Part shown: positions 2,683-48,246 of the stretch, piece by piece
Layout: every line of letters begins with the position of its first letter
Numbering within the stretch: position 1 is the first letter of the stretch
Source: Escherichia phage JLBYU09
Reading direction: 5' to 3' (one strand)
Sequence record: OK272487.1
Length of the DNA stretch: 48,988 nucleotides
Position numbers and translations under genes: made by a program
The notes under the pieces: model-generated
Databases searched by the model: none
What the model saw: the letters and a program-made list of their open reading frames with translations, nothing else
Told to the model about the DNA's origin: nothing

Positions 2683-2727
2683 ATTATGCCGAATCCAGTC
2701 AGGCACGTTTTAACAAAAAGTGCTATT
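2683..2727 (-). promoter_or_regulatory. conserved-box promoter-like element (box, 19-nt spacer, CATAAT)
   Basis: Minus-strand AATAGCACTTTTTGTTAAAA at 2727-2708; CATAAT at 2688-2683. Confidence 0.5.
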
Positions 2728-3316
2728 TGCTTACTGGTCATTATTCCATCTATTCCATTAATCAGGAATAACAGGAATAACTCATTCGCGATCACCTGGA
2801 TTGGGAGACTTTGAGTTTGGTCAATTTTAATCAAGTGATTAACTTTTTGTGTGGAGGGGATAGAGAAACGCTGCCCTCTTGCATCCTTTCCGACAATCCT
2901 GGCGCGCGCATCTGTTATTTCTGTTCCCCATGTTATCTCAAATAAGCCTCCGCACTTTTAGATAACAGAATCGGCGTTCATCAACAAAAAGAACAAAATA
3001 AAANTNANATATNNACNNANNANATCAATAAGTTAGTTATATATGTATTTATATTTGTTATTTACTGTTGAGCTTGTTCTATGGGTATATGGTGGAGTGG
3101 TATTGTTTGTGGTGATATGTATGTGTGATTGTATATTTTTTAATCAATGGTGATATGTGGTGATTTTTGTATGTATATATATAGGTATGGAGCAATCCTC
3201 CGTCAACCAAGTCAACAAGGTCATTTTTAAAAGAAAAACCAATGACTTAACTGAAGCATTTTGTTATCTTTAAACGCGCCACATGCCAAAAATTGTTATT
3301 AAAACACAAAAATACA

Positions 3317-3345
3317 TTGACACGTATGAAAGGCAAGGCAATAAT
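3317..3345 (+). promoter_or_regulatory. sigma70-like promoter (TTGACA, 17 nt, AATAAT)
   Basis: TTGACA at 3317-3322, AATAAT at 3340-3345; at the right end of AT-rich region A, before the first rightward gene. Confidence 0.5.
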
Positions 3346-3381
3346 GCATCCAGTTTAAACGCAACAAAAGGAGTAGACGCC

Positions 3382-3903
3382 ATGAGCGAAGAAAATATTA
3401 GCACCATGTCGCGTAGTGAGTTCTGCGATATGCTTCGCAGCCTGGGCGCGGCAATTGGTAGCGGTGAGCGTAATGATGTATTCATGCCAGCACTTTTTTT
3501 GTGCGCTAACGTGGAGAACGGCGAAGCAATTACGGCATCGTACATGCGCCAAGTGGTCAACCGTGTGCCAGAAGTAAAGCAAAAAGGCGTGATCAGCATT
3601 AAGCGAAAGGTGACTGATGAGGGTGATGGCTTTGTGTTTACGCTCACTGAAGCCAAAAGCAAGCCTCGCGTTCTGACTGGTGAAGAAATCGACGAGATCG
3701 CAGAAAAGCGCGCAGAGAAGGCGGTAAGCAAAATTCTTAATCACCTGGTAAACGTAATGCCAAATATCACAGACCTGGAAGGCGACAAACTTGCTGGGGC
3801 GTGTGAGGCTATCGGGCGCTACCAGGATATGATTCGTAAACTCGCTGGAGGAAAAGAGGATGAATANNNNATNNNNNNNNNTNTTNAAACTCGAAAACGA
3901 TAA
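3382..3903 (+). CDS. hypothetical protein (C-terminus crosses N-run)
   Basis: Track ORF 3283..3903; start moved to ATG 3382 after AAAGGAG RBS; N-run 3867-3893. Confidence 0.5.
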   Translation: MSEENISTMSRSEFCDMLRSLGAAIGSGERNDVFMPALFLCANVENGEAITASYMRQVVNRVPEVKQKGVISIKRKVTDEGDGFVFTLTEAKSKPRVLTGEEIDEIAEKRAEKAVSKILNHLVNVMPNITDLEGDKLAGACEAIGRYQDMIRKLAGGKEDEXXXXXXXXTRKR

Positions 3904-5925: not shown

Positions 5926-6135
5926 TCTGGTTACTTTTAATCTTTGTCACAAGTTACAATTCCGCCGCTATTGAATCGCAAGAGTTCCACGGCGAATCAA
6001 GATGCCAGGAAGCACGANNACNNGNNNNNCNNNANNTCNACGGNCGAATCAAGATGCCAGGAAGCACGAAAACAAGTTGTTCTCCACATGTCAGATAGTG
6101 GGAAAGATGTAACAGCGCTATGCGTTCGTAAATAG
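5922..6135 (+). CDS. small membrane protein (MIWLL family), interrupted by N-run and tandem duplicate
   Basis: ATG 5922 overlaps the upstream stop, GGAGGA RBS; N-terminus MIWLLLIFVTSYNS; frame ambiguous across Ns 6018-6043. Confidence 0.3.
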
Positions 6136-8491: not shown

Positions 8492-8749
8492 ATGGCTAAA
8501 AGCAATCGTAAAATGTTGATTAACGCATTCGAAAAGGCAGCGCTTGAGCGTGGCTGGAATGACTCATTTCACACAGCAAACTGTATCCGCCGTTACGGAT
8601 TCAAGAATTGCCGCTCCTGGGCGCGTCAAATGGCTTCATGGTATGATCTTGATGCGCATTACCTTGATATGGATTGCGCCCTTGTTGAAATGATTGAGCA
8701 GGCCGCATTAGAGGATNGANCANNNNCGCANTNNNNNNTNGACCATTAA
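8492..8749 (+). CDS. hypothetical protein (3-prime end crosses N-run)
   Basis: AAAGGAGGAAGC RBS; Ns 8717-8738; true stop may be 8800-8802. Confidence 0.5.
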   Translation: MAKSNRKMLINAFEKAALERGWNDSFHTANCIRRYGFKNCRSWARQMASWYDLDAHYLDMDCALVEMIEQAALEDXXXXXXXXDH

Positions 8750-9096: not shown

Positions 9097-9328
9097 TCAC
9101 GATTAACCTGTCAGAGCAGCANGCGNGNATNATGNNNGNNNNCAGGCAACGGTTAAAATCCCTGATACGGTAGCGCGTGAAGTTTTTAACCAGCTTGAAC
9201 ACGCATTTGTTCCTGTTGGCACTGATCAGGCAGAAACAGCGGCTTGGTTCGGAGAGAACGGATACAGAGATCAGCAAGTCGAAAACTGGAAGCGCAAAAA
9301 CGAGACTGCGGAGGAGGCCGGATTATGA
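9093..9328 (+). CDS. hypothetical protein (interrupted by N-run)
   Basis: ATG 9093 overlaps the upstream stop; Ns 9121-9143 shift the apparent frame; ends TGA 9326-9328, overlapping the next ATG. Confidence 0.3.
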
Positions 9329-11446: not shown

Positions 11447-13014
11447 TGCTGATTTGGGAAGACTTAACAGCGGCGCAAAAACGCGCCGTTAAGGAAATGA
11501 GCGAATATTCATTCGAAAAGATGATCCGCATTTGGTTTCAACTTCTCCAGGGGCAAAGGTTTTTAGGAAACTGGCATTTCAGTTACCTATGCAGCGAAGT
11601 TGAAAAAATCATCAAAGGCGAGTCACAGAATGTAATTTTCAACATAACGCCAGGCAGTGGTAAAACAGAGATATTCTCGATCCACATGTCACCTTATGCG
11701 TCATTGAAAAGTAAGAAGGTGAGAAATCTTAATTTGTCGTTTAGTGATGGCCTTGTCCAGCAGAATAGCAACCGCATCAAAGAGATTATTGGTTCTCCAG
11801 AATGGCAGGAGCTATGGCCTGGAAAGTTGGCAAAGGCGAGCGCAAAGGATTTGATTGTAACTGATGGCGGCAAGGTTAAATTACAAGTTAACTCGCGTTC
11901 TATCGGAGGTCAGGTTACTGGTCTGCGTGGTGGCTACATGGACGATGGTTTTACTGGTATGTTGGTTCTTGATGATCCAGACAAGCCGGATGACATGCTT
12001 TCTAAGGTGAAGCGCGAAGCCGGACACATGCGCCTAAAGAACACGGTGCGATCGCGTCGAATGAAGGACACCACGCCAATTGTGATGGTTCAGCAACGTC
12101 TACACGTCAATGATTCAACATGGTTCATGACAAACGGCGGCATGGGCGGCATCAAGTTTAAGGTGGTTAGTATTCCGGCGCTCGTTACTAAGGAATATCG
12201 CGAAACGCTTCCTGATTGGTTAAAGCCTGAGTTTGATCGCGATGTTTTGTCCAGTAAGCCAGTGATGATTGATGGCGTTGCTCATTATTCATTCTGGCCT
12301 GCTAAGGAAAGCGCGGATGAATTGCTTGCGCTTCGCAATGCCGATCCGTACACGTTCGCTAGTCAGTATCAGCAACAGCCTGTTGCGCTTGGCGGTAACG
12401 TGTTTAAAACAGAGTGGTTTCAGTATTACGGAAGCAGCGAGAAATGCACGCTACCAAAACCGGATCGCTTTGAATATACATTTATCACGGTTGATACCGC
12501 GCAGAAAACAGGGGAGCTTAACGACTATTCCGTGATCTGTTATTGGGGGATGTATAAAGATCGTGTCTACTTCATTGATGGCGTTCGCGGGAAATGGGAA
12601 GCACCGGACCTTGAGACGAATTTTGTTGCATTCGTTAATCAGTGCTGGAAGCGCAATAAAGAATGCGGAACGTTGCGAAGGATTCATGTTGAAGATAAAT
12701 CGTCTGGCACTGGATTGATTCAGAGTGCGGCGAAAAAAATCATGATCAAGATCAATCCCGTTCAGCGCGATAAAGACAAGGTTACTCGTGCAATGGACGC
12801 AGCACCAGTAATGCGCGCCGGACGCGTGGCACTTCCAGAATCTCATTCTATGCTGGCTGAGATACTCGCTGAAGTTGCGGCGTTCACATTCGATGATTCG
12901 CATCCTCATGATGATATTGTTGATAACATCATTGATGCGGTTAACATTGAAATGAACATGGCAGATGATCCGGTTGGAAGAATGAAAAAATTGGCAGGTT
13001 TGCGGAACAAATAG
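11446..13014 (+). CDS. terL: terminase large subunit
   Basis: 522 aa; P-loop ITPGSGKTE near the N-terminus; size and position typical of TerL. Confidence 0.8.
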   Translation: MLIWEDLTAAQKRAVKEMSEYSFEKMIRIWFQLLQGQRFLGNWHFSYLCSEVEKIIKGESQNVIFNITPGSGKTEIFSIHMSPYASLKSKKVRNLNLSFSDGLVQQNSNRIKEIIGSPEWQELWPGKLAKASAKDLIVTDGGKVKLQVNSRSIGGQVTGLRGGYMDDGFTGMLVLDDPDKPDDMLSKVKREAGHMRLKNTVRSRRMKDTTPIVMVQQRLHVNDSTWFMTNGGMGGIKFKVVSIPALVTKEYRETLPDWLKPEFDRDVLSSKPVMIDGVAHYSFWPAKESADELLALRNADPYTFASQYQQQPVALGGNVFKTEWFQYYGSSEKCTLPKPDRFEYTFITVDTAQKTGELNDYSVICYWGMYKDRVYFIDGVRGKWEAPDLETNFVAFVNQCWKRNKECGTLRRIHVEDKSSGTGLIQSAAKKIMIKINPVQRDKDKVTRAMDAAPVMRAGRVALPESHSMLAEILAEVAAFTFDDSHPHDDIVDNIIDAVNIEMNMADDPVGRMKKLAGLRNK

Positions 13015-15130: not shown

Positions 15131-16243
15131 ATGAAGGCAAAACAAAGATTTGATAGCGTCCAGGTTAAGGCGCATTTTGATGATAATGGCTTTTTAGTGG
15201 ATCGCCCAATTGTGGCGCGAATTGGCTTGCAGGAGTACCGCACACCGTATGGAATCAGACGAGAGTTCCGTCCAGCGTCCGAGGTGTTCAAGGCTGATTC
15301 GCTTGCTACGTTCGCAGGCAAGCCGATCACTATCGGTCACGTCACAGTGACGCCAGATAATGCGGATCAGGTTGTTGTTGGTTCATGCGCTGGCGCTGGT
15401 GTTCCAAATGGGATTGGCGTTGAAGTTCCGTTAAGCATTTACTCAAAGCGAGCAATTGAGAGCGCAAAAAAGAAAGACACGGCGGAAATTTCAGTTGGTT
15501 ACACATCGGTTGATATTGATAAGCCAGGGTGGGGTAATAATAAAACTGGTGATTACTTGTTTGAGGAAGACCTTAAGGAAGACTGGAAGCCTGATTCTCC
15601 TGATTGGGTTAAATTTGACGCCATTCAGACGAATATTCGTGTTAATCACATTGCGCTCGTCTTTCGTGGTCGTGCTGGAATTGCCAAATTAAATCTTGAT
15701 AGCGAACAGGATTTTCCGTATAGTGACGAGGTTTCAAATGACAAAGGAGATGAGGAAATGACAGTAAAAATCAAACTTGATGGCGCGGTAGAATTTGATG
15801 TTCCAAAGGCCGTTGCTGATCATATTGAGGCGTTAAAGGCAGATGCAAAAGCTGCAACCGAAAAAGCTGATGGCCTTGAGGCCGAGCGTGACGCCCTGAA
15901 AACTAAAGTCGATGGCATTCCGGCGCAGATTGCAGAAGCTGTTAAGAAGGCAAAGACTGACGCAGAAGAACACGCCAAGCTGGTTGCAGATGCAACTGAA
16001 ATTGGCATCAAGTGTGACGGATTGGACGCTAAAGCGATCAAGGTTGCTTACGTCAAAGAAGTCACTGGCGCTGATATTTCAGAAAAAGCAGATGCATATA
16101 TTGAAACAGCTTTTGACCTTGCGAAGCAGTCTGATAAAATGGCGGCGCAGCGTAAATCTGTTAAGGGCGATTCTTTCGAATCTGGCAAGAGTGAAAAAAC
16201 CGACTCCCTTGATCCGACTGCGCGTTTGAAAAAACTTAAATAA
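15131..16243 (+). CDS. putative scaffolding / prohead maturation protein
   Basis: 370 aa; globular N-terminal half and Ala/Lys/Glu-rich helical C-terminal half. Confidence 0.45.
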   Translation: MKAKQRFDSVQVKAHFDDNGFLVDRPIVARIGLQEYRTPYGIRREFRPASEVFKADSLATFAGKPITIGHVTVTPDNADQVVVGSCAGAGVPNGIGVEVPLSIYSKRAIESAKKKDTAEISVGYTSVDIDKPGWGNNKTGDYLFEEDLKEDWKPDSPDWVKFDAIQTNIRVNHIALVFRGRAGIAKLNLDSEQDFPYSDEVSNDKGDEEMTVKIKLDGAVEFDVPKAVADHIEALKADAKAATEKADGLEAERDALKTKVDGIPAQIAEAVKKAKTDAEEHAKLVADATEIGIKCDGLDAKAIKVAYVKEVTGADISEKADAYIETAFDLAKQSDKMAAQRKSVKGDSFESGKSEKTDSLDPTARLKKLK

Positions 16244-26963: not shown

Positions 26964-29900
26964 ATGGCTGAAAATATGATAACGGGAAGTAAGGGCGGAT
27001 CATCAAAACCTTATGTTCCGAAAGAGATGGAAGATAACCTGATCTCAATCAACAAAATCAAAATTCTTCTTGCCGTTTCCGATGGCGAGTGCGATCCAGA
27101 TTTTACACTTCGCGATCTGTATCTTGATGATGTTCCGGTAATTGCAGGCGACGGAACTGTTAACTACCAGGGTGTGAAAGCTGAATTTCGACCTGGAACG
27201 CAGACGCAAGATTACATCCAGGGGTTTACTGACACATCAAGCGAAGTGACGCTGGCGCGTGACATTACGACAACAAATCCTTATGTAATTTCCGTAACCA
27301 ACAAAACATTATCGGCTATCAGAATCAAAATGCTAATGCCAACAGGCATTAAGCAAGAGGATAACGGCGATCTTGTTGGCGTTAAGGTTACTTATGCTGT
27401 TGATATGGCTGTTGACGGAGACTCTTACAAAGAAGTATTGCGAGACACTATCGAAGGTAAAACGCGATCAGGTTACGACAGAAGCAGAAGGATTGACCTT
27501 CCGGCATTTAATGATCGCGTATTACTTAGGGTTAGAAGGGTTACGGCAGACAGCACATCTTCTCGTGTTACTGATCTGATTAAACTACAAAGTTACGCTG
27601 AGGTTATTGATGCAAAATTCCGTTACCCTCTGACTGGTCTTGTATACGTTGAATTTGACAGTGAGTTGTTCCCTAACCAGATCCCTAACATTTCAATCAA
27701 GAAGAAATGGAAGTTGATTAATGTTCCGAGCAATTACGATCCGGTAATGCGAGAGTATCACGGTTCATGGGATGGTACGTTCAAAAAAGCGTGGTCGAAC
27801 AATCCGGCGTGGGTACTTTATGACATTATCACAAACCAGCGATACGGATTAGATCAGAGAGAGCTTGGTGTGCAGGTTGACAAATGGAGTCTTTACGAAG
27901 CGGCGCAATACTGCGATCAGAAAGTGCCGGACGGAAAAGGCGGTACAGAGCCGCGTTATCTATGCGACGTTGTGATTCAAAGCCAGATTGAGGCTTATCA
28001 GCTTATTCGTGATATTTGCTCAATCTTCCGAGGAATGAGCTTTTGGAATGGAGAGAGCTTGTCAATCGTCATTGATAAGCCGCGCGATCCGTCGTACATC
28101 TTCACCAATGACAACGTTGTTGATGGTGATTTTCAGTACACAACAGCAAGCGAAAAGAGCATGTACACGCAGTGCAACGTGACGTTCGACGACGAACAAA
28201 ACATGTATCAACAGGACGTAGAGGGCGTATTCGACACCGAGGCTGCATTGCGCTTTGGATACAATCCGACAAGCATAACAGCGATCGGATGTACACGCAG
28301 GAGTGAGGCTAATCGGCGCGGTCGATGGATACTAAAAACCAACTTGCGCAGCACTACGGTAAACTTTGCTACTGGACTGGAAGGAATGATCCCATCAATA
28401 GGTGATGTGATTGCTATTGCTGACAACTTTCACAGCAGCAACCTTAAATTAAACCTATCAGGGCGCGTGATGGAAGTTTCCGGCTTGCAGGTGTTCGTTC
28501 CGTTTAAGATTGACGCGCGACCAGGTGATTTCATTATCATCAACAAACCGGACGGAAAGCCAGTTAAGCGCACAATCTCAAAAGTAAGCGGCGACGGAAA
28601 AACCATTGAACTAAACATTGGGTTTGGGTTTGAAGTTAAACCGGATACAGTTTTTGCAATCGACCGCACTGATATTGCATTGCAGCAATACGTTGTAACG
28701 AGTATCGGCAAAGGTGATGATGATGATGAATTTACATACTCCATCACGGCTGTTGAATATGACCCGAACAAATACGACGAGATTGATTACGGAGTAAACA
28801 TTGACGACAGGCCAACTTCAATTGTCCAGCCTGACACAATGGCAGCACCGGAAAACGTGCAAATATCCTCATACTCGCGAATTGTCCAGGGTGCAAGCGT
28901 TGAAACAATGGTTGTGTCGTGGGATAAAGTACCTTACGCATCGCTGTATGAAATGCAATGGCGAAAAGGTGATGGAAACTGGCTGAATACACCACAGACC
29001 GCAAACAAAGAAATTGAGGTTGAAGGTATTTATTCAGGAAACTACCAGGTAAGGGTTAGATCTGTTTCCGCTTCAGGTTCTACTTCTCCGTGGTCCAGAA
29101 TTGTGACAGCATCACTGACTGGTAAGGTAGGAGAGCCAGGCGCGCCAGTTAACTTAACAGCATCCGACAATGAAGTGTTTGGCATTCGTGTTAAGTGGGG
29201 GATGCCAGAAGGGAGCGGGGACACGGCATACATTGAGCTTCATCAGTCGCCGGATGGAACGGCTGAAAACTCAAGCCTGCTAACGCTGATCCCGTATCCA
29301 CAATATGAATACTGGCACGGTACGCTTCCGGCTGGTCATGTTGTATGGTATCGGATCAGGAGCGTGGACAGGATCGGCAACGTTTCCGGTTGGACTGATT
29401 TTGTTAGAGGTATGGCTTCAGATGATGTGGAGGCTGTTTTAGGAGATATTCTTGATAAGATTTTTGATACTGAAGCAGGTCAGGATCTTAAAGAGAACGC
29501 CATTGACAGTGCAAACAAGATAAAGGACCAGGCGCAAGCAATCATCCAGAATGCTCTTGCTAATGATGCTGATATTAAGTGGACGCGAGTACAAAACGGA
29601 AAGAGAAAGGCTGAATATGGTCACGCTCTTGAGCTTATCGCCACAGAGACTGAGGCGCGAGTTACGCAGATTGAAGAATTGAGGGCGTCAATCGACGAGG
29701 ATATTGTTTCAAGCATAAAGACAGTGCAGGAGGCTATCGCCACAGAATCTGAAACGCGAGCAACTCAAATAAACGCTTTGGATTCAAAATTCACAACTGA
29801 AATTGACGGCGTAAAACGCAATACAGCAGCAAGCATTAATCAGGTGAATCAAACAATTGCCAATGAATCAGAGGCGCGAGCGCAGGCCGTTAACGCGCTT

Positions 29901-30542
29901 GATGCGAAGTTCACAAAGGAGATCGAAGATTTAAACGGAGTCATTAAGACTGAGGTTGAGGCTAACATCTCTGAAGTGAAACAGGCTATCGCTAATGAGA
30001 CAGAAGCAAGGGTGCAGGCTGACCAGGCTTTAACAGCTAAATTCGGAGACGTTGAATCTGCATTAGCTCAAAAACTTGATTCGTGGGCTGGCGTGTCATC
30101 TGTTGGTGCTAAATACTCAATGAAATTGGGGTTAACATACAATGGGCAGAAGTACAGCGCAGGAATGGTAATGCAGCTTTCGCAGAGTTCATCCGGCCTT
30201 GTCTCGCAAATCTTGTTTGACGCGAACAGGTTCGCGATCATGACAAGTTCGACTGGCGGGGTGTATACATTGCCTTTCGTGGTGGAAAATAACCAGGTAT
30301 TCATTAACAGCCTGTTAGTTAAAAACGGTTCAATTACAAATGCCATGATCGGTAATTATATTCAGTCGAATAACTTTGTTGCCAATCAGCAGGGTTGGAG
30401 GCTGGATAAAAACGGCAGATTTGAGAACTACGGTTCTACGTCTGGAGAGGGGGCCATGAAGTTGACCAATGAAACGATAAGTGTACGAGATGCAAACGGG
30501 CGCTTGCGTGTTCAGATTGGTAGGCTTACTGGTACGTGGTAA
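26964..30542 (+). CDS. central tail fibre / host specificity protein (lambda J-like)
   Basis: 1192 aa; AAGGTGAAAAAG RBS; follows K/I-like genes; C-terminal repeats (ANESEARAQAVNALDAKFT). Confidence 0.8.
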   Translation: MAENMITGSKGGSSKPYVPKEMEDNLISINKIKILLAVSDGECDPDFTLRDLYLDDVPVIAGDGTVNYQGVKAEFRPGTQTQDYIQGFTDTSSEVTLARDITTTNPYVISVTNKTLSAIRIKMLMPTGIKQEDNGDLVGVKVTYAVDMAVDGDSYKEVLRDTIEGKTRSGYDRSRRIDLPAFNDRVLLRVRRVTADSTSSRVTDLIKLQSYAEVIDAKFRYPLTGLVYVEFDSELFPNQIPNISIKKKWKLINVPSNYDPVMREYHGSWDGTFKKAWSNNPAWVLYDIITNQRYGLDQRELGVQVDKWSLYEAAQYCDQKVPDGKGGTEPRYLCDVVIQSQIEAYQLIRDICSIFRGMSFWNGESLSIVIDKPRDPSYIFTNDNVVDGDFQYTTASEKSMYTQCNVTFDDEQNMYQQDVEGVFDTEAALRFGYNPTSITAIGCTRRSEANRRGRWILKTNLRSTTVNFATGLEGMIPSIGDVIAIADNFHSSNLKLNLSGRVMEVSGLQVFVPFKIDARPGDFIIINKPDGKPVKRTISKVSGDGKTIELNIGFGFEVKPDTVFAIDRTDIALQQYVVTSIGKGDDDDEFTYSITAVEYDPNKYDEIDYGVNIDDRPTSIVQPDTMAAPENVQISSYSRIVQGASVETMVVSWDKVPYASLYEMQWRKGDGNWLNTPQTANKEIEVEGIYSGNYQVRVRSVSASGSTSPWSRIVTASLTGKVGEPGAPVNLTASDNEVFGIRVKWGMPEGSGDTAYIELHQSPDGTAENSSLLTLIPYPQYEYWHGTLPAGHVVWYRIRSVDRIGNVSGWTDFVRGMASDDVEAVLGDILDKIFDTEAGQDLKENAIDSANKIKDQAQAIIQNALANDADIKWTRVQNGKRKAEYGHALELIATETEARVTQIEELRASIDEDIVSSIKTVQEAIATESETRATQINALDSKFTTEIDGVKRNTAASINQVNQTIANESEARAQAVNALDAKFTKEIEDLNGVIKTEVEANISEVKQAIANETEARVQADQALTAKFGDVESALAQKLDSWAGVSSVGAKYSMKLGLTYNGQKYSAGMVMQLSQSSSGLVSQILFDANRFAIMTSSTGGVYTLPFVVENNQVFINSLLVKNGSITNAMIGNYIQSNNFVANQQGWRLDKNGRFENYGSTSGEGAMKLTNETISVRDANGRLRVQIGRLTGTW

Positions 30543-31562: not shown

Positions 31563-31790
31563 TCACAGACTGCAATCAGCGTTTTTAAAGTTATCAATAC
31601 TTACCCACTGAAAATTAAACGGATAGCCAGCCTTAACAAGAGTGCGGTCGCCAACTCGTTTCACTCCGAAAATAGCAACTGAATACTGCATTCCGCTATT
31701 TTCATAAATAGCCGTGCATTCACGTTTAGGCATATTTGCACATCCAGTCAGTGCAACGGCTGCAATCAAAACGGCGATTAACTTTTTCAT
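31563..31790 (-). CDS. cor: Cor-like superinfection-exclusion lipoprotein
   Basis: 75 aa; signal peptide plus lipobox LTGC; convergent with the receptor-binding gene, as recalled for T1 and phi80 cor; AAGGAGA RBS. Confidence 0.55.
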   Translation of the reverse strand: MKKLIAVLIAAVALTGCANMPKRECTAIYENSGMQYSVAIFGVKRVGDRTLVKAGYPFNFQWVSIDNFKNADCSL

Positions 31791-31820
31791 TTTGTGTCTC
31801 CTTAGTTGTTATTGGTTGCA

Positions 31821-31864
31821 ACTATACACGATCTTGCGGTGGGCGTTTAGCAAAAAGTGCTATT
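31821..31864 (-). promoter_or_regulatory. conserved-box promoter-like element (box variant, 19-nt spacer, TATAGT)
   Basis: Minus-strand AATAGCACTTTTTGCTAAA at 31864-31846; TATAGT at 31826-31821; upstream of the Cor-like gene. Confidence 0.5.
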
Positions 31865-32231
31865 CTTGTTCTTTTTGTTATCCGGTGTTCTCAAATCTGC
31901 GGAGTCTTAAATTTAGCTCAAAAAGTGAACAACAATAGAGCGCAATACATACAGATAAATATATACATACATATAAATCAATAAGTTAGTAGTATATATA
32001 TTCATGTTTGTTCTTTATTGTTATCTATGTTTTGTGTGATTTTGTGCGTCTGGTGATTTTTCTGTGATTATGCATGTGTCAGTGGTTATGTGTGTCTATA
32101 TATCTATATCCGGCGCAAATGAGGGAACAAGAGAACAAAAAGACAACAAAGGTATTTATCAATCACTTACATGTGAATTTTGTTATCCAATTCTCCTAGA
32201 ACGTTGTTAGAACAGAAAAAACAAAATAACT

Positions 32232-32259
32232 GTTGACTAAACGCATTAAATAGCTAAAA
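32232..32259 (+). promoter_or_regulatory. sigma70-like promoter (TTGACT, 16 nt, TAAAAT)
   Basis: At the right end of AT-rich region B, upstream of the exonuclease/Erf/SSB operon. Confidence 0.5.
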
Positions 32260-32289
32260 TGCAGGCATACCAACCAACGAGGGCAAATC

Positions 32290-33351
32290 ATGAATAAGTT
32301 TATGGCGTACACCAGCGAAGAAATGAGTAACGAGCTTTATCACGATCCAGAAGCGTGGACGGCTGATTATGTTAGCGGTTCAAGCCTGGCAGAGATTTAC
32401 AGCACATGCCCGGCAGCGTGGAAGTTCAAGCCGCGTGATGACAAGAGCAAGGCGCTAGTTTTCGGTACGCAGTCGCATACCAACTTTGAAAGCAAGGAGC
32501 TTTTCGAAAAAACCTATCGCCGTGCGCCAGCACCAGAAGAATTTAAGGATCTGATAACCAGCCAAACGGCGCTTGCTGCAAAGCTGAAATCATTTGGACT
32601 GAAAGGTACAACCGGAAAGACTTATCCCGAACTTATAAAAATGATGGTTGACTGCGGAGAAGACCTTAACGTCATGTGGTTAATCGACATGATCGCAGAA
32701 AGTCAGGCCAGGGCCGATGGGGTTCAGTTAATCGAGGCTAAAGATTACGATTCTTGCGTGGCAATGCGCCAGGTTCTGGAATCAATACCGGAACATAACG
32801 CATGTATGAATAGCAAGACGGCACAACGTGAATTATCGTTGTTCGGTGAAATTAACGGCGTAAAAGTCAAAGTGCGATGCGATCACGTTGACGTAACAAA
32901 GAACGTCACCGCAACGCTTATTGATGGTTACGATGAAAAAGGTCAGCCAATTTGCCGCGATATTATTTATCCAGAGGCCATTGTGATCACAGACTACAAA
33001 ACCACAATGAGCGCGAATCCGGCTGAGTTTATGCGCCTGGCTTACAATCACGGCTATTATTTGAAAATGGCGTTGCAATGTGATTTATTCAGAAAAGCGT
33101 ATCCAGAAGAAAAGCGACCTATAGTTGTTCGACTGTTAGCGCAAGAGAAGAAAGAGCCTTATTTGCCGTTGGCTTTCCGCATGAACAGCGAGCAATTGAA
33201 GATCGGGCGCATTCAGTACATGAGCGTAATTAACCAGTTTGCCATGTGCCAGCAACATGACGTTTGGCCTTCGTATTCAAACGGCGAGCCGGAGGTTTGC
33301 CTTGATACTCCTGATTGGGTGCGACGCCAGTTTAAGCAATATCTTATTTAA
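32290..33351 (+). CDS. recombination exonuclease (PD-(D/E)xK family, putative)
   Basis: 353 aa; D...D-Y-K signature (CDHVD, ITDYKTT); first gene of an operon with Erf and SSB. Confidence 0.55.
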   Translation: MNKFMAYTSEEMSNELYHDPEAWTADYVSGSSLAEIYSTCPAAWKFKPRDDKSKALVFGTQSHTNFESKELFEKTYRRAPAPEEFKDLITSQTALAAKLKSFGLKGTTGKTYPELIKMMVDCGEDLNVMWLIDMIAESQARADGVQLIEAKDYDSCVAMRQVLESIPEHNACMNSKTAQRELSLFGEINGVKVKVRCDHVDVTKNVTATLIDGYDEKGQPICRDIIYPEAIVITDYKTTMSANPAEFMRLAYNHGYYLKMALQCDLFRKAYPEEKRPIVVRLLAQEKKEPYLPLAFRMNSEQLKIGRIQYMSVINQFAMCQQHDVWPSYSNGEPEVCLDTPDWVRRQFKQYLI

Positions 33352-33432: not shown

Positions 33433-33711
33433 ATGGAAAACAAACAAGTGTCAGAGGTAGCAGTTCATATCAATAATTTTGCAACTGGCATGGCTATGTT
33501 GCTTCGTGATTTTGTTGCGCCGCTTGATCCAACGGCAGGCGCAGAAGAAATGGAGTACATCAGAAAAGTAATGGATGCAGTCGATAACGTCGTACTTGTT
33601 GCAACAATGAGCGAAGACAACGAGGAAGCAATCAAGGCGGTAAAAGAAAGCTCTGATCGCATGATGGAAAGTCTGATTAAATTACACACCAAAGAAGAAA
33701 CAAAACATTAA
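33433..33711 (+). CDS. hypothetical protein
   Basis: 92 aa; AAGGAAATAAAC RBS. Confidence 0.5.
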   Translation: MENKQVSEVAVHINNFATGMAMLLRDFVAPLDPTAGAEEMEYIRKVMDAVDNVVLVATMSEDNEEAIKAVKESSDRMMESLIKLHTKEETKH

Positions 33712-34940: not shown

Positions 34941-35182
34941 CTTTCAGCCATCCCAAGCACGGCAATCACCTTAACAGCAATTCTCTTTGCAAGTTCAGTT
35001 TGATGAGCGTTAAGTTTTCCAGTGGTCATTATTGACAACATTCCGCTCATACTTCCAAGACCGTTAAAATCTGACATTGCCGATTTCATTATTGATATTG
35101 GCGAATGACCTTCATCAGCTATTGTGTGCGCTCTCTCTGACAGGTCTTTAACTACCTGATCAATTCCTTCACTTTTCGTCAT
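34925..35182 (-). CDS. hypothetical protein
   Basis: 85 aa; AAGGAAAAG RBS. Confidence 0.5.
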   Translation of the reverse strand: MTKSEGIDQVVKDLSERAHTIADEGHSPISIMKSAMSDFNGLGSMSGMLSIMTTGKLNAHQTELAKRIAVKVIAVLGMAESEKGA

Positions 35183-35660
35183 TTGCTTTTCCTTCAGGAG
35201 TTGATTGCTGTTCTGGCATTACAGGCCACGGGCTAATTGATTCCCTTTCTGCTACTGGCTTTTCAGGCTCAATTCCTAAAAACTTTCCTACAAACTCACC
35301 AACAAAATTTGAGCTATCGCTTACATAAACATGCATCCTGTCTAGATCTGCAACCGTAACGCTATTTGGTGCGATCATGATCCTCTGTTGGTGAAAACCG
35401 ATATACATCACATTAGCCGGACGCTCAAGAGTCCCCATATTTGGCGCAATTACGCCCATTATCCAACAATAATGAATGTTGCCATCAAGCGGCTCACATC
35501 CAGCGTTAAGCCAGTTTACTTTCTGGTGAGGAAACGCCATCGATGAATCAGTAGCATCACGCCGTAACGACCATTTAACGCCGCCAATCTCAATGATTTG
35601 TTTCGGCCTCATCCCGTTGAATTGAGTCACGCCAGCGCCATTTTGATTAATGTTTTGCAT
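35169..35660 (-). CDS. hypothetical protein
   Basis: 163 aa; AAAAGG RBS. Confidence 0.5.
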   Translation of the reverse strand: MQNINQNGAGVTQFNGMRPKQIIEIGGVKWSLRRDATDSSMAFPHQKVNWLNAGCEPLDGNIHYCWIMGVIAPNMGTLERPANVMYIGFHQQRIMIAPNSVTVADLDRMHVYVSDSSNFVGEFVGKFLGIEPEKPVAERESISPWPVMPEQQSTPEGKANDEK

Positions 35661-45866: not shown

Positions 45867-46073
45867 TCAAATCTTGAAAGCTGTTTCCGCTATAATCATT
45901 CTCGACAAGAATGTAAGNACNTNTCTTCNTNNNATCNNNNANNNNNNNNTNTNNTCNTAACGATTTATTTCAAACGTGCTACCATCTTCTCTTGTCGCAG
46001 TTCCTTTGTCGTTGAAAACATCAAAAGTTACATTGATGATTTTTGTTTCTTTCTTTGTTACTTTGATAGCCAT
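45867..46073 (-). CDS. hypothetical protein (interrupted by N-run)
   Basis: Track ORF 45867..46088; start moved to ATG 46073 after GAGGA RBS; Ns 45918-45958. Confidence 0.4.
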   Translation of the reverse strand: MAIKVTKKETKIINVTFDVFNDKGTATREDGSTFEINRXXXXXXXXXXXRXXLTFLSRMIIAETAFKI

Positions 46074-46662: not shown

Positions 46663-48246
46663 TTACCCCAGCAATGTTGGATTTACAAAAACAACGCCAT
46701 TAATCACACAAATATAATTTCTTTCTTCAAGCATCGGCAGCAGTTGCGTTTCCATACGCTTCATTACGCCAGCCTGGCCAACAAACGGCTTAACTTTTCG
46801 TGCAGCCTCATATATGGCGCGCACATTCAAGATCCCCTTGTTAGCCTTACCGTGTCGAGTGATGATCTCGATTAGTTTACCCATTTCAGCATCATCACCA
46901 GCATAGCCAGAAGCGTTGGCGGCGCTAATGTATGTTTTGCTCAACTCGCTAAACATCAGCAGTGCTTCCTGAACGGTTTCAACCTCAATCTCTTTCGACT
47001 TTTGAGGGTATCCGCCAGGATTAAACCAATTGCGGATAGTGTGCAAAACCGAAGCAATCCTGATCACCTGCTTATCCATTTTGCCAAGCGCACCGCGCAG
47101 CATTGTATGCGAATACTTTCCGCCATCGGCAAGGTGCGGTTCCATCTCCTGACGAGCCATGTTAAGAACTCGCATTGCGGATTTGCTGATCTTAAGCTGG
47201 ATGTTCGATTCACTCATGATGTTATGGATCAGCTTGAAATATTGGCTTTTCAGTTCTCCATCAACAGGTTCATAAGTAGAATCACCGTTATCATCAACAA
47301 ACTTTCTACGGCCTAAAAATGATTCCTCACGCACAAGCAAATAACGCTCACTTACACCGATACCGCGCGATCCTGCATCCATGATGGCATTGATTGTTTC
47401 ATCCTGGGCAATTACCGCCATACAGCCAAGAGCTTTAAAACTCATATTGTTGTCAGCGTTTGCGCGAGCTATAGAAACATGACCGTGATCCCATGCTTTT
47501 AATACAAGTTCGCTGTTGGTTTTACGTTCGCTATTGGCATATGTCAGACCTAAAAGGCTGTTAATACTTGTTGCCTCGTCTGAAATCACAGCAAAGTTAC
47601 CCTGGCGATTGTTGATTCTTGCAAGTCCTTCCGGCGTTGTGTCGGACACAGGGAAAACGATGTCACACATCTTTTCCAGTTTTTCTTCCAGATCTTCTTT
47701 CTCCTGGTACAGAGATTCCATATCAGCGCCGGAGCGCTCGCTTTTCATCTCTTTTGCAAGACCTGCCAACTTTGCCTGAATCTTTTTTCTTTCCTTCTTT
47801 CGCTGTTCATTAATTCTTTCCACTTCAGCAACCATAGGAGCAAGTGCCAGGCTGTTAACGGCAGATTTACCAGTTGATGGAGGCTGGCTTGTGACAACGT
47901 AAAGAGCGGTTGGTTGATCCGTTCCGTGATACTCAACCGTGAAGCGTCCAAGCATTGCAGCAGACACGCAGCCGATAAAATGCATATATGCCGATGATTC
48001 AGGGAACTGAACTGATCGAGCAATGTTGCGCGCCAACTTACCAACAACATCAATATCATTGCCAAGAGAAATTACAGGGTAGCGATCGTTTCCGTTATTA
48101 ACATCATTAACCTCACCCCAAAAGCTGGACGATTGACGGTATCCGTTTGCCTGAATGGACACGCGCACAGGAGACAATCCTTGTGCATCAGCTAATTCGA
48201 TAATTTGTTTTGGTGTTAGTTTATTGGTTTCAAACGAAAAATTCAT
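46663..48246 (-). CDS. large P-loop-containing protein (putative replication-associated NTPase)
   Basis: Track ORF 46663..48300; start moved to ATG 48246 (MNFSFETNK) after AAAGGAG RBS; Walker-A-like QPPSTGKSAV; family not identifiable without a search. Confidence 0.45.
   Translation of the reverse strand: MNFSFETNKLTPKQIIELADAQGLSPVRVSIQANGYRQSSSFWGEVNDVNNGNDRYPVISLGNDIDVVGKLARNIARSVQFPESSAYMHFIGCVSAAMLGRFTVEYHGTDQPTALYVVTSQPPSTGKSAVNSLALAPMVAEVERINEQRKKERKKIQAKLAGLAKEMKSERSGADMESLYQEKEDLEEKLEKMCDIVFPVSDTTPEGLARINNRQGNFAVISDEATSINSLLGLTYANSERKTNSELVLKAWDHGHVSIARANADNNMSFKALGCMAVIAQDETINAIMDAGSRGIGVSERYLLVREESFLGRRKFVDDNGDSTYEPVDGELKSQYFKLIHNIMSESNIQLKISKSAMRVLNMARQEMEPHLADGGKYSHTMLRGALGKMDKQVIRIASVLHTIRNWFNPGGYPQKSKEIEVETVQEALLMFSELSKTYISAANASGYAGDDAEMGKLIEIITRHGKANKGILNVRAIYEAARKVKPFVGQAGVMKRMETQLLPMLEERNYICVINGVVFVNPTLLG

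Follow-up and report, generated by a model that had tools for sequence, protein, structure and literature searches.

Region B is a non-coding gap of 499 nt (31791-32289 of the window, that is, the whole stretch of 48,988 nt that was analysed) located between a cor-like gene and the exonuclease VIII (exoVIII) gene of a T1-like coliphage, which belongs to the genus Hanrivervirus of the Tempevirinae (Drexlerviridae). The gap is flanked by the leftward promoter of cor on one side, and by the rightward sigma-70 promoter of the exonuclease/Erf/SSB operon on the other. A related gap, region A (about 2690-3381), has a leftward set of small genes on one side and a rightward set on the other. When compared with Escherichia phage JLBYU41 (OK272479.1), region B of the window is 100% identical and region A 98.7% identical, the latter value being lower because of N-masked bases. 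Positions in the window and in OK272479.1 differ by 588 at region A and by 787 at region B, so the latter record has ~199 nt extra between the two regions. The window contains 126 N's in nine scattered patches of interspersed single bases with no solid blocks (among them 1481-1569, 3004-3023, 3867-3886, 6018-6044, 8717-8740, 9122-9142, 37122-37199 and 45918-45957), one of which falls in the core of region A.

Some annotations around the two regions deserve a comment. In related records, the 92-aa ORF between exoVIII and erf (33433..33711, plus strand) is named 'tail length tape-measure protein', and a 163-aa ORF (35169..35660, minus strand) 'putative TerL'. Neither name finds support in Pfam, and both labels look as if they had been transferred by name only. 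For the first rightward gene of region A, the ATG annotated in JLBYU41 (about 3283) precedes the TTGACA-17-AATAAT promoter (3317-3345), to which a later in-frame ATG, at 3382 and with a good AAAGGAG ribosome-binding site, is a better fit; the Henu8 annotation gives yet another start. The tail-fibre gene (26964..30542) carries about three imperfect copies of a ~30-40-nt repeat at 29624-30005, spaced by 99-252 nt, and these probably give rise to a series of coiled-coil segments in the protein.

Region B has a paralogue in region A, and both are non-coding control regions. A preliminary description of this DNA had taken it for a diverged second copy of region A upstream of the recombination operon, and formal alignment, shuffles and an independent profile agree with that view. 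Once the masked bases of region A are restored from the source record, where they read AAAATTTATATATATACCCATAAAATCAATAAGTTAG, both regions align with a Smith-Waterman score of 89, as compared to 23.0 +/- 2.5 (maximum 34) in 300 dinucleotide shuffles. The best block spans 134 columns with 76% identity (A 2998-3126, B 31955-32079), and is accompanied by two collinear flanks, which bears out the proposal of the same blocks in the same order: the 21-nt element described below (A 2709-2727 with B 31846-31864) and a CAATsACTTA..ATTTTGTTATC block (A 3240-3268 with B 32160-32187), followed in each region by its sigma-70 promoter. Since shuffles can overrate the similarity of two AT-rich islands, cross-lineage comparisons and a B-only profile were added as controls. 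Comparisons of AT-rich islands across lineages score 20-57, typically 28-45. An nhmmer profile made from the B copies of five other phages matches region A of the window on the same strand (E=1.8e-16), and this B-only profile reveals no third core site in the 49-kb genome. A sequence-only covariance model (cmsearch), built without phage pSf-1, detects two sites and no more in that phage. Region A is no simple copy of B, as it has ~180 nt extra (~2730-2910). Part of region A had also been described as N-masked from 3001 to 3025, opposite a given string of region B. The masking exists as 10 N bases scattered over 3004-3023 and not as a solid block, and the unmasked A sequence aligns with B at ~31955-31990, which overlaps just the 3' part of that string.

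Table 1. Coordinates of the features of region B, of its flanking genes and of related elements in the window
Feature	Position	Strand	Remarks
cor-like gene	31563..31790	minus	PHROG Cor; superinfection-exclusion type
-10 hexamer TATAGT of the cor promoter	31821..31826	-	37 nt from the start of the 21-nt element
21-nt direct-repeat element ATAGCACTTTTTGCTAAACGC	31843..31863	-	leftward towards cor; 73 nt upstream of the cor start codon
Left cluster of TTGTTC / TTGTTATC / GTGTTC short repeats	31866..31893	+	TTGTT[AC]T enrichment
Conserved core common to region A	31922..32115	+	nhmmer E=1e-49; cmsearch 31923-32078
Predicted IHF match AATCAATAAGTTA (core consensus WATCAANNNNTTR)	31976..31988	+	A/T-rich tract before it
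Most conserved core block TTTGTTCTTTATTGTTATCTATGTT	32007..32031	+	aligned A and B copies
T/G-rich, C-poor segment	32032..32095	+	GTGAT-type repeats at 32036, 32053 and 32064
A-rich GAACAA / GACAACAA cluster	32120..32150	+	inverted version of the left TTGTT cluster
Second predicted IHF match TATCAATCACTTA, then ATTTTGTTATCC	32157..32188	+	collinear with A 3240-3268
Sigma-70 promoter TTGACT-16-TAAAAT of the exoVIII/Erf/SSB operon	32233..32260	+	A-rich tract 32209-32231 just upstream
Exonuclease VIII gene	32290..33351	plus	followed by the 92-aa ORF, Erf and SSB
Paralogous core, region A	2981..3134	+	nhmmer E=1.8e-16; cmsearch E=3.6e-22
Region A promoter TTGACA-17-AATAAT	3317-3345	+	downstream of the A core
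DUF3987 'DNA helicase'	46663..48246	-	AlphaFold pLDDT 89
21-nt element, starts of the window copies	1849, 2726, 4864, 6132, 7435, 8802, 13011, 17285, 21045, 31863, 33352, 38857, 39328, 41846, 42887, 46150, 48317	either

The module reads, from left to right, as a leftward promoter of the 21-nt class, TTGTT-type repeats, an A-rich, (TA)n and T/G-rich core, an inverted A-rich cluster and a rightward sigma-70 promoter (Table 1). Inside the core, an A-rich alternating purine/pyrimidine tract ending in AATCAATAAGTTA is followed by a (TA)n run, TTTGTTCTTTATTGTTATCTATGTT, the GTGAT stretch and TATATATCTATAT. The repeated TGTTATC motifs of the preliminary description were recovered as three copies (31876, 32019 and 32181), with 0.10 expected from dinucleotide shuffles, none of which reached three copies in 2000 trials; TTGTT[AC]T has six copies for 0.24 expected. 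The alternating purine/pyrimidine runs noticed before are likewise in place (ACATACATATA at 31965 and TATATATCTATAT at 32097), the longest one covering 31959-31975 and another 32097-32109. The TTGACT-N16-TAAAAT promoter is also present, one base to the right of the 32232-32259 first given. Fourier analysis of the positions of TG, TGT and GTGAT gave no clear period that would reveal a regular periodicity or helical phasing. The left cluster and 32120-32143 are imperfect inverted partners (24 nt, 75% complementary), and inverted repeats are many and non-concentric throughout region B, because A-rich and T-rich segments alternate in it.

Several of these motifs are conserved. Of ten aligned A/B copies from four genera, all or nearly all keep TATTTGTT..TT..TGTT and the tGTGTT that follows, and nine keep TGGTGAT, whereas the full TGTTATC of the 32007-32031 block is kept in most B copies and is absent from the A copies. 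GAACAAGAGAAC in the A-rich GAACAA cluster is kept across genera, and ACTATACACGATC at the -10 of cor in three of them, and the GenBank record of phage haarsle annotates a 34-nt repeat_region over the T/G-rich GTGAT segment. The 13-mer AATCAATAAGTTA is identical at the homologous, unmasked position of region A (3023-3035), and is kept in Hanrivervirus and PeterMerian and lost in PaulSarasin and MatMar. Predicted IHF-consensus matches amount to two in B and two in A, none of them kept in all genera. These are four of the nine matches in the genome, within 2.4% of its sequence, and an involvement of IHF is predicted from the consensus match only.

In a nearest-neighbour scan with windows of 60, 100 and 150 bp, no duplex segment of the genome is less stable than the cores of A and B. 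Their instability reaches z values of 4.2-5.0, as compared to 3.4 for the third-ranked segment. The least stable 60-bp duplex of the genome is found in the A core (2995-3054), and the B windows 31945-32004 and 31944-32043 rank second and first, respectively. With a GC content of 0.17-0.19 over 60-100 bp (z 4.7-4.8), the B core has the composition of the AT-rich unwinding element of an iteron-type origin. The third segment (44529-44751; z ~3.4, GC 0.20-0.27) lies just upstream of a putative holin ORF (44735..44950) and includes an IHF-consensus match at 44694-44706; the core profile gave no significant detection in it (E=5).

The B core is under purifying selection and evolves more slowly than the neighbouring synonymous sites. 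Its identity with phage haarsle is 95.9%, whereas exoVIII, the 92-aa ORF, erf and ssb reach 77-91% at their third codon positions; with PaulSarasin, the whole gap is 61.7% identical and the third positions 47-57%. Region B aligns from end to end in the genera Hanrivervirus, Changchunvirus and Warwickvirus, which keep its length of ~500 nt and its block order. Some 18 to 20 'Campylobacter phage' records (host Campylobacter jejuni) are 92-97% identical to the coliphage sequence of regions A/B, and their host labels seem doubtful, as the records look like Hanriverviruses. No counterpart of region B was found in 5,426 E. coli genomes or in the plasmids of PLSDB, and satellite copies or origin mimicry in bacteria or plasmids were therefore rejected. 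An exact 15-mer scan of IMG/VR with AATCAATAAGTTAGT gave matches that, from the names and lengths of the contigs, nearly all look like chance, only two contigs being as long as known Hanriverviruses.

This conservation could in principle reflect a hidden gene, either for a small protein or for a structured small RNA. Mechanical ORFs of 41-48 aa do exist (32064..32210 and 32074..32199), and a few GenBank records call hypothetical proteins in region B. However, none of the ORFs is conserved by start, frame or length among seven phages of three genera, the relatives show single-base indels within them, and the region is thus not coding in related phages, so a small protein was rejected. At the RNA level, the whole window has no match to the Rfam covariance models, and segment 31866-32232, folded as single-stranded DNA on both strands, gives z values of 0.30 and 0.67 with respect to shuffles. 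A structured RNA or a single-stranded DNA hairpin was consequently discarded as well, the folding being no better than that of shuffles and Rfam being empty, and the core has no promoter-like site inside. A hidden gene is hardly credible after these results.

Both regions stand out for their promoters too. The sigma-70 promoter of region B ends 30 nt before the start codon of exoVIII, and is kept in three Tempevirinae genera and in T1. Strong canonical intergenic sigma-70 promoters are few in the window, with two rightward ones (A and B) and perhaps a third at 15696, in agreement with the three strong promoters of this kind reported for phage TLS (PMC11447400). UP-like A-rich tracts adjoin the -35 hexamers of both promoters, and the CAATsACTTA..ATTTTGTTATC block ends 44 nt (B) and 47-48 nt (A) upstream of these hexamers, with the end of the core at 118 nt in B and 183 nt in A. 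In Shigella phage 2019SD1 (NC_049820.1 19267-20813; Hanrivervirus), region B breaks off just after the GTGAT repeats: the sigma-70 promoter and the rest of the right half have been lost or substituted, and the annotated exoVIII extends further at its 5' end, so the left half and the core persist in this phage without the usual promoter.

The leftward promoter belongs to another class. A 21-nt repeat has been described in TLS, T1 and Rtp, with the consensus aaATAGCACnnnTTGnTAAAA oriented with transcription and located about 76 nt upstream of start codons, and its function was listed among the open questions (PMC11447400). ATAGCACTTTTTGCTAAACGC, running from 31863 to 31843 on the minus strand, is such a repeat, and occupies the left edge of region B only. 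The corresponding element ATAGCACnnnTTGnTAAA has 17 copies in the window, most of which show a -10-like hexamer (TATAAT, TATAGT, CATAAT or similar) 37-38 nt from the start of the element, and then a ribosome-binding site and a start codon. The copies at 13011, 17285 and 21045 have no clear -10 or gene start, and the last two point against the surrounding late genes. TTGnTA stands 21-22 nt upstream of the -10 and is therefore too far for a normal -35, and the whole arrangement suggests a factor-dependent promoter class, or an UP-like element. The element at the left edge of region B is typical of the family of direct repeats in the TLS paper. The repeat described there corresponds to the flanking promoter element only, whereas the AT-rich core is separate from it and goes unmentioned in that work (PMC11447400).

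Paired regions of this kind recur in more distant members of the family. The equivalents in T1 are the gap from cor to exoVIII (29851-30377) and the region that spans the ends of the record. In a comparison confined to intergenic sequences, their AT-rich centres score 66 with each other, as compared to 24.7 +/- 3.2 in shuffles, and they are accompanied by short repeats of their own (GTGTAACA/GTTACA and GATTAAC/GATTACG). The Klebsiella Weberviruses Sushi and MezzoGao carry TAAGAT/ATCTTA in 10-11 copies in the gap upstream of exoVIII, distributed around an AT-rich centre. In MezzoGao, a second copy of this centre is found in the divergent early gap (88% identity over ~137 nt), and the two copies rank once more as the least stable pair of segments in the genome (z 6.1 and 5.5). 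Both copies are mutually inverted together with the exo operon, so that the core keeps its orientation with respect to the operon downstream. The same orientation of core to operon is found in Hanrivervirus, T1 and Webervirus. With the Tempevirinae model, matches are weak in T1, where the equivalent of region A alone is detected, and in MezzoGao, and all coincide exactly with the corresponding sites. No long gap was found upstream of exoVIII in Rogunavirus AHP42. The core sequence and the short repeats beside it are particular to each of the three lineages, and such lineage-specific repeats (TTGTTATC here, others in T1 and Webervirus) follow the pattern expected if they were co-evolving with a phage-encoded binder.

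Within the Tempevirinae, the A core of pSf-1 scores 55-74 with the B cores of Warwickvirus and Changchunvirus and 35 with its own B core, and the A core of the window is as close to the B cores of other genera as to its own. Concerted evolution within the same genome was rejected for this subfamily, as the A and B cores of pSf-1 resemble each other at background score only, and these comparisons suggest that the cores behave as exchangeable variants with no within-genome concert. The exchange of core variants between positions and genera would also fit an AT-rich spacer of no specific function, kept as a module junction and occasionally homogenised by recombination between phages. A mere spacer, however, would not be expected to be better conserved than nearby synonymous sites, nor to keep its ~500 nt and its block order in three genera, nor to persist as a paired layout across subfamilies, and we consider it improbable.

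A role in packaging, with region B as a second pac-like or terminase-assembly site, looks very improbable. IHF-type bends are common at cos and pac sites. In addition, the T1 record begins inside the region-A equivalent, where a 2.8-kb terminal repeat is annotated, and several Hanrivervirus records start or stop within region A, to whose equivalent untranslated region the pac of phage SU57 was assigned (PMC7718038). Nevertheless, the record ends map to the A-specific segment of ~180 nt (about 2730-2910), which is missing from B, and therefore the common core is not the part linked to the ends. None of the records examined begins or ends in B; their ends were located at about window 2850-2955, inside the A-specific insert, and, for T1, in the equivalent of region A. 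The A-only segment (~2730-2910) is itself highly conserved in Hanrivervirus, contains the beginnings or ends of the GenBank records of haarsle, G29-2 and BEK1-23, as well as the place equivalent to coordinate 1 of T1, and is a likely pac or terminus region.

The reading that we tentatively prefer, as a possibility somewhat short of probable, is that the core would be an origin-type site of unwinding and assembly coupled to divergent transcription. It is favoured by the combination of paired, meltable non-coding modules, divergent promoters and lineage-specific repeats in a phage whose genome provides a Zn-ribbon primase, a Cro/YdaS-like HTH protein (38841..39314) and helicases, and no polymerase. 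The primase belongs to Pfam PF08273, matches only the first half of the 667-position profile of PHROG 510, and is likened to alpha-type proteins in the T1 record itself. The model of the DUF3987 helicase has its best PDB matches in MCM2-7 subunits and in archaeal Orc1/Cdc6 (AAA+), and ends in a C-terminal winged helix (residues ~451-521), which also matches the stand-alone phrog_7327. The true start of this helicase is probably 18 codons inside the longest ORF, as its homologues have 527 aa. At the sequence level, neither helicase nor primase gave a meaningful match to PDB chains. The two papers on T1-like phages that deal with an origin state that they found none, and recent genome papers on T1 relatives list the regulatory repeats as open (PMC11447400, PMC7718038); together with the MCM/Orc1-like winged-helix model of the helicase, this gap also favours an origin.

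In mechanistic terms, divergent transcription from the two flanking promoters would introduce negative supercoiling in the AT-rich core and lead to its opening. A bend by IHF or a substitute and the short repeats would position a phage DNA-binding protein, for which there would be two candidates, the winged helix at the end of the MCM-like helicase and the Cro-like HTH protein whose gene lies beside that of the primase. Finally, the phage primase and helicase would start replication with the host DNA polymerase III. Protein binding, unwinding in vivo and replication initiation at the core are steps that we infer from these features.

Several observations weigh against an origin. The repeats of region B are of 7-8 nt (TGTTATC and GTGAT, three copies each) with irregular spacing. 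A regular array of 17-22-bp iterons was accordingly discarded, as only short irregular motifs are present, and so was a DnaA-dependent origin, since neither A nor B has DnaA boxes with at most one mismatch. Cumulative GC skew tracks gene orientation and gives no independent origin signal. The IHF consensus is lost in some genera, ihf proved dispensable for a TLS-like phage in a Keio screen (PMC7229145), and AHP42 has no long exoVIII gap. Moreover, the fixed orientation of core and operon, and the position upstream of the two clearest promoters, would fit a transcriptional role equally well.

That role is the main rival, which we rank below the origin reading and regard as possible, if rather doubtful: the core would be a purely transcriptional element that activates or organises the early promoters from upstream, with no part in replication. 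Curved AT-rich DNA, an IHF-type bend and regulator sites would then set the strength and timing of both flanking promoters. Early promoters stimulated by IHF are well known in phages (lambda pL, Mu Pe). Both cores lie upstream of the two clearest canonical intergenic sigma-70 promoters of the window, and their orientation to the operon is constant in Hanrivervirus, T1 and Webervirus, even with the operon inverted in the latter, a fixed orientation and a placement that together favour this alternative. The UP-like tracts beside both -35 hexamers and the CAATsACTTA..ATTTTGTTATC block at a similar distance from them point in the same direction. Its weakness comes from the long and unequal distances between core and -35 hexamer in the two copies. 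In addition, the TAAGAT sites of Webervirus do not overlap core promoter elements, a Keio screen found no ihf requirement in a TLS-like phage (PMC7229145), and a promoter element would leave unexplained why, in two distant lineages, no other segment of the genome melts as easily as these two.

If the origin reading is extended to both regions, a two-site control of replication can be envisaged in Drexlerviridae, with A near pac and B upstream of the recombination operon. Both would be promoter-flanked unwinding modules, recognised through lineage-specific repeats. A split P4-alpha-like / MCM-like primase-helicase set would act on them, and they could be dual origins, in the manner of SPP1 oriL/oriR, or an origin with a cis enhancer, like P4 ori/crr. 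Such a complete scheme is rather unlikely as it stands. In any case, a link of region B to early expression and replication is plausible, and the duplicated module with the two most meltable segments provides two precise candidate sites of about 150 bp each for initiation and for the control of immediate-early promoters. T1 is a classical T phage, notorious as a contaminant of laboratories. In the T1-like phage literature searched, this pair of AT-rich regions is not described. Were the two-site replication reading true, these would be the first mapped origins for Drexlerviridae, and if the module is a promoter element only, it still defines the architecture of two early transcription units family-wide. 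The module also offers a practical handle for engineering, for example through origin-trap plasmids or the exchange of cores.

Elements of these kinds (AT-rich unwinding origins, divergent-promoter control regions and two-site systems) are already known, and region B resembles several of them in part. Like lambda pL and the Pe/Pc operator region of Mu, it has early promoters, divergent or strong, with AT-rich DNA and an IHF site (here a predicted one) upstream. However, in lambda and Mu the IHF site lies within about 100 bp and in a fixed phase, whereas the distances here are 118 and 183 nt and unequal between copies. The control regions of polyomaviruses and papillomaviruses offer an analogy of layout, as they are also compact and non-coding, with an AT-rich core, short repeats and divergent promoters. 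Their origin lies between divergent early and late promoters and is used by an initiator-helicase of the AAA+ type that has a DNA-binding domain. Viruses and hosts are unrelated in this case, and the analogy is restricted to the layout. In the origins of pSC101, R6K gamma and lambda, an AT-rich unwinding segment, an internal IHF-consensus site and adjoining short repeats also occur together, whereas region B has neither regular 17-22-bp iterons nor DnaA boxes, and its initiator is a candidate only.

Two-site systems offer the closest parallels in organisation. Bacillus phage SPP1 is a pac-type siphovirus with two origin copies, oriL and oriR, which are bound by G38P at biochemically defined boxes. 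Its genome is of similar size to the one described here, with two related cis sites tens of kb apart and repeats beside an AT-rich segment. On the other hand, the repeats of region B are short and irregular, there is no sequence similarity between both systems, and SPP1 alone has a defined binder. Satellite phage P4 has two separated cis regions, ori and crr, with common short repeats (TGTTCACC), and its alpha protein unites a Zn-ribbon primase, a helicase and a C-terminal winged-helix domain for origin binding. Unlike in P4, the genes are split in the T1-like phages, and the helicase model matches AAA+ proteins of the MCM/Orc1 type and not a solved structure of P4 alpha. In spite of these differences, the T1-like phages have the same kinds of parts as P4 alpha, a Zn-ribbon primase and, as a separate protein, a helicase that ends in a winged helix.
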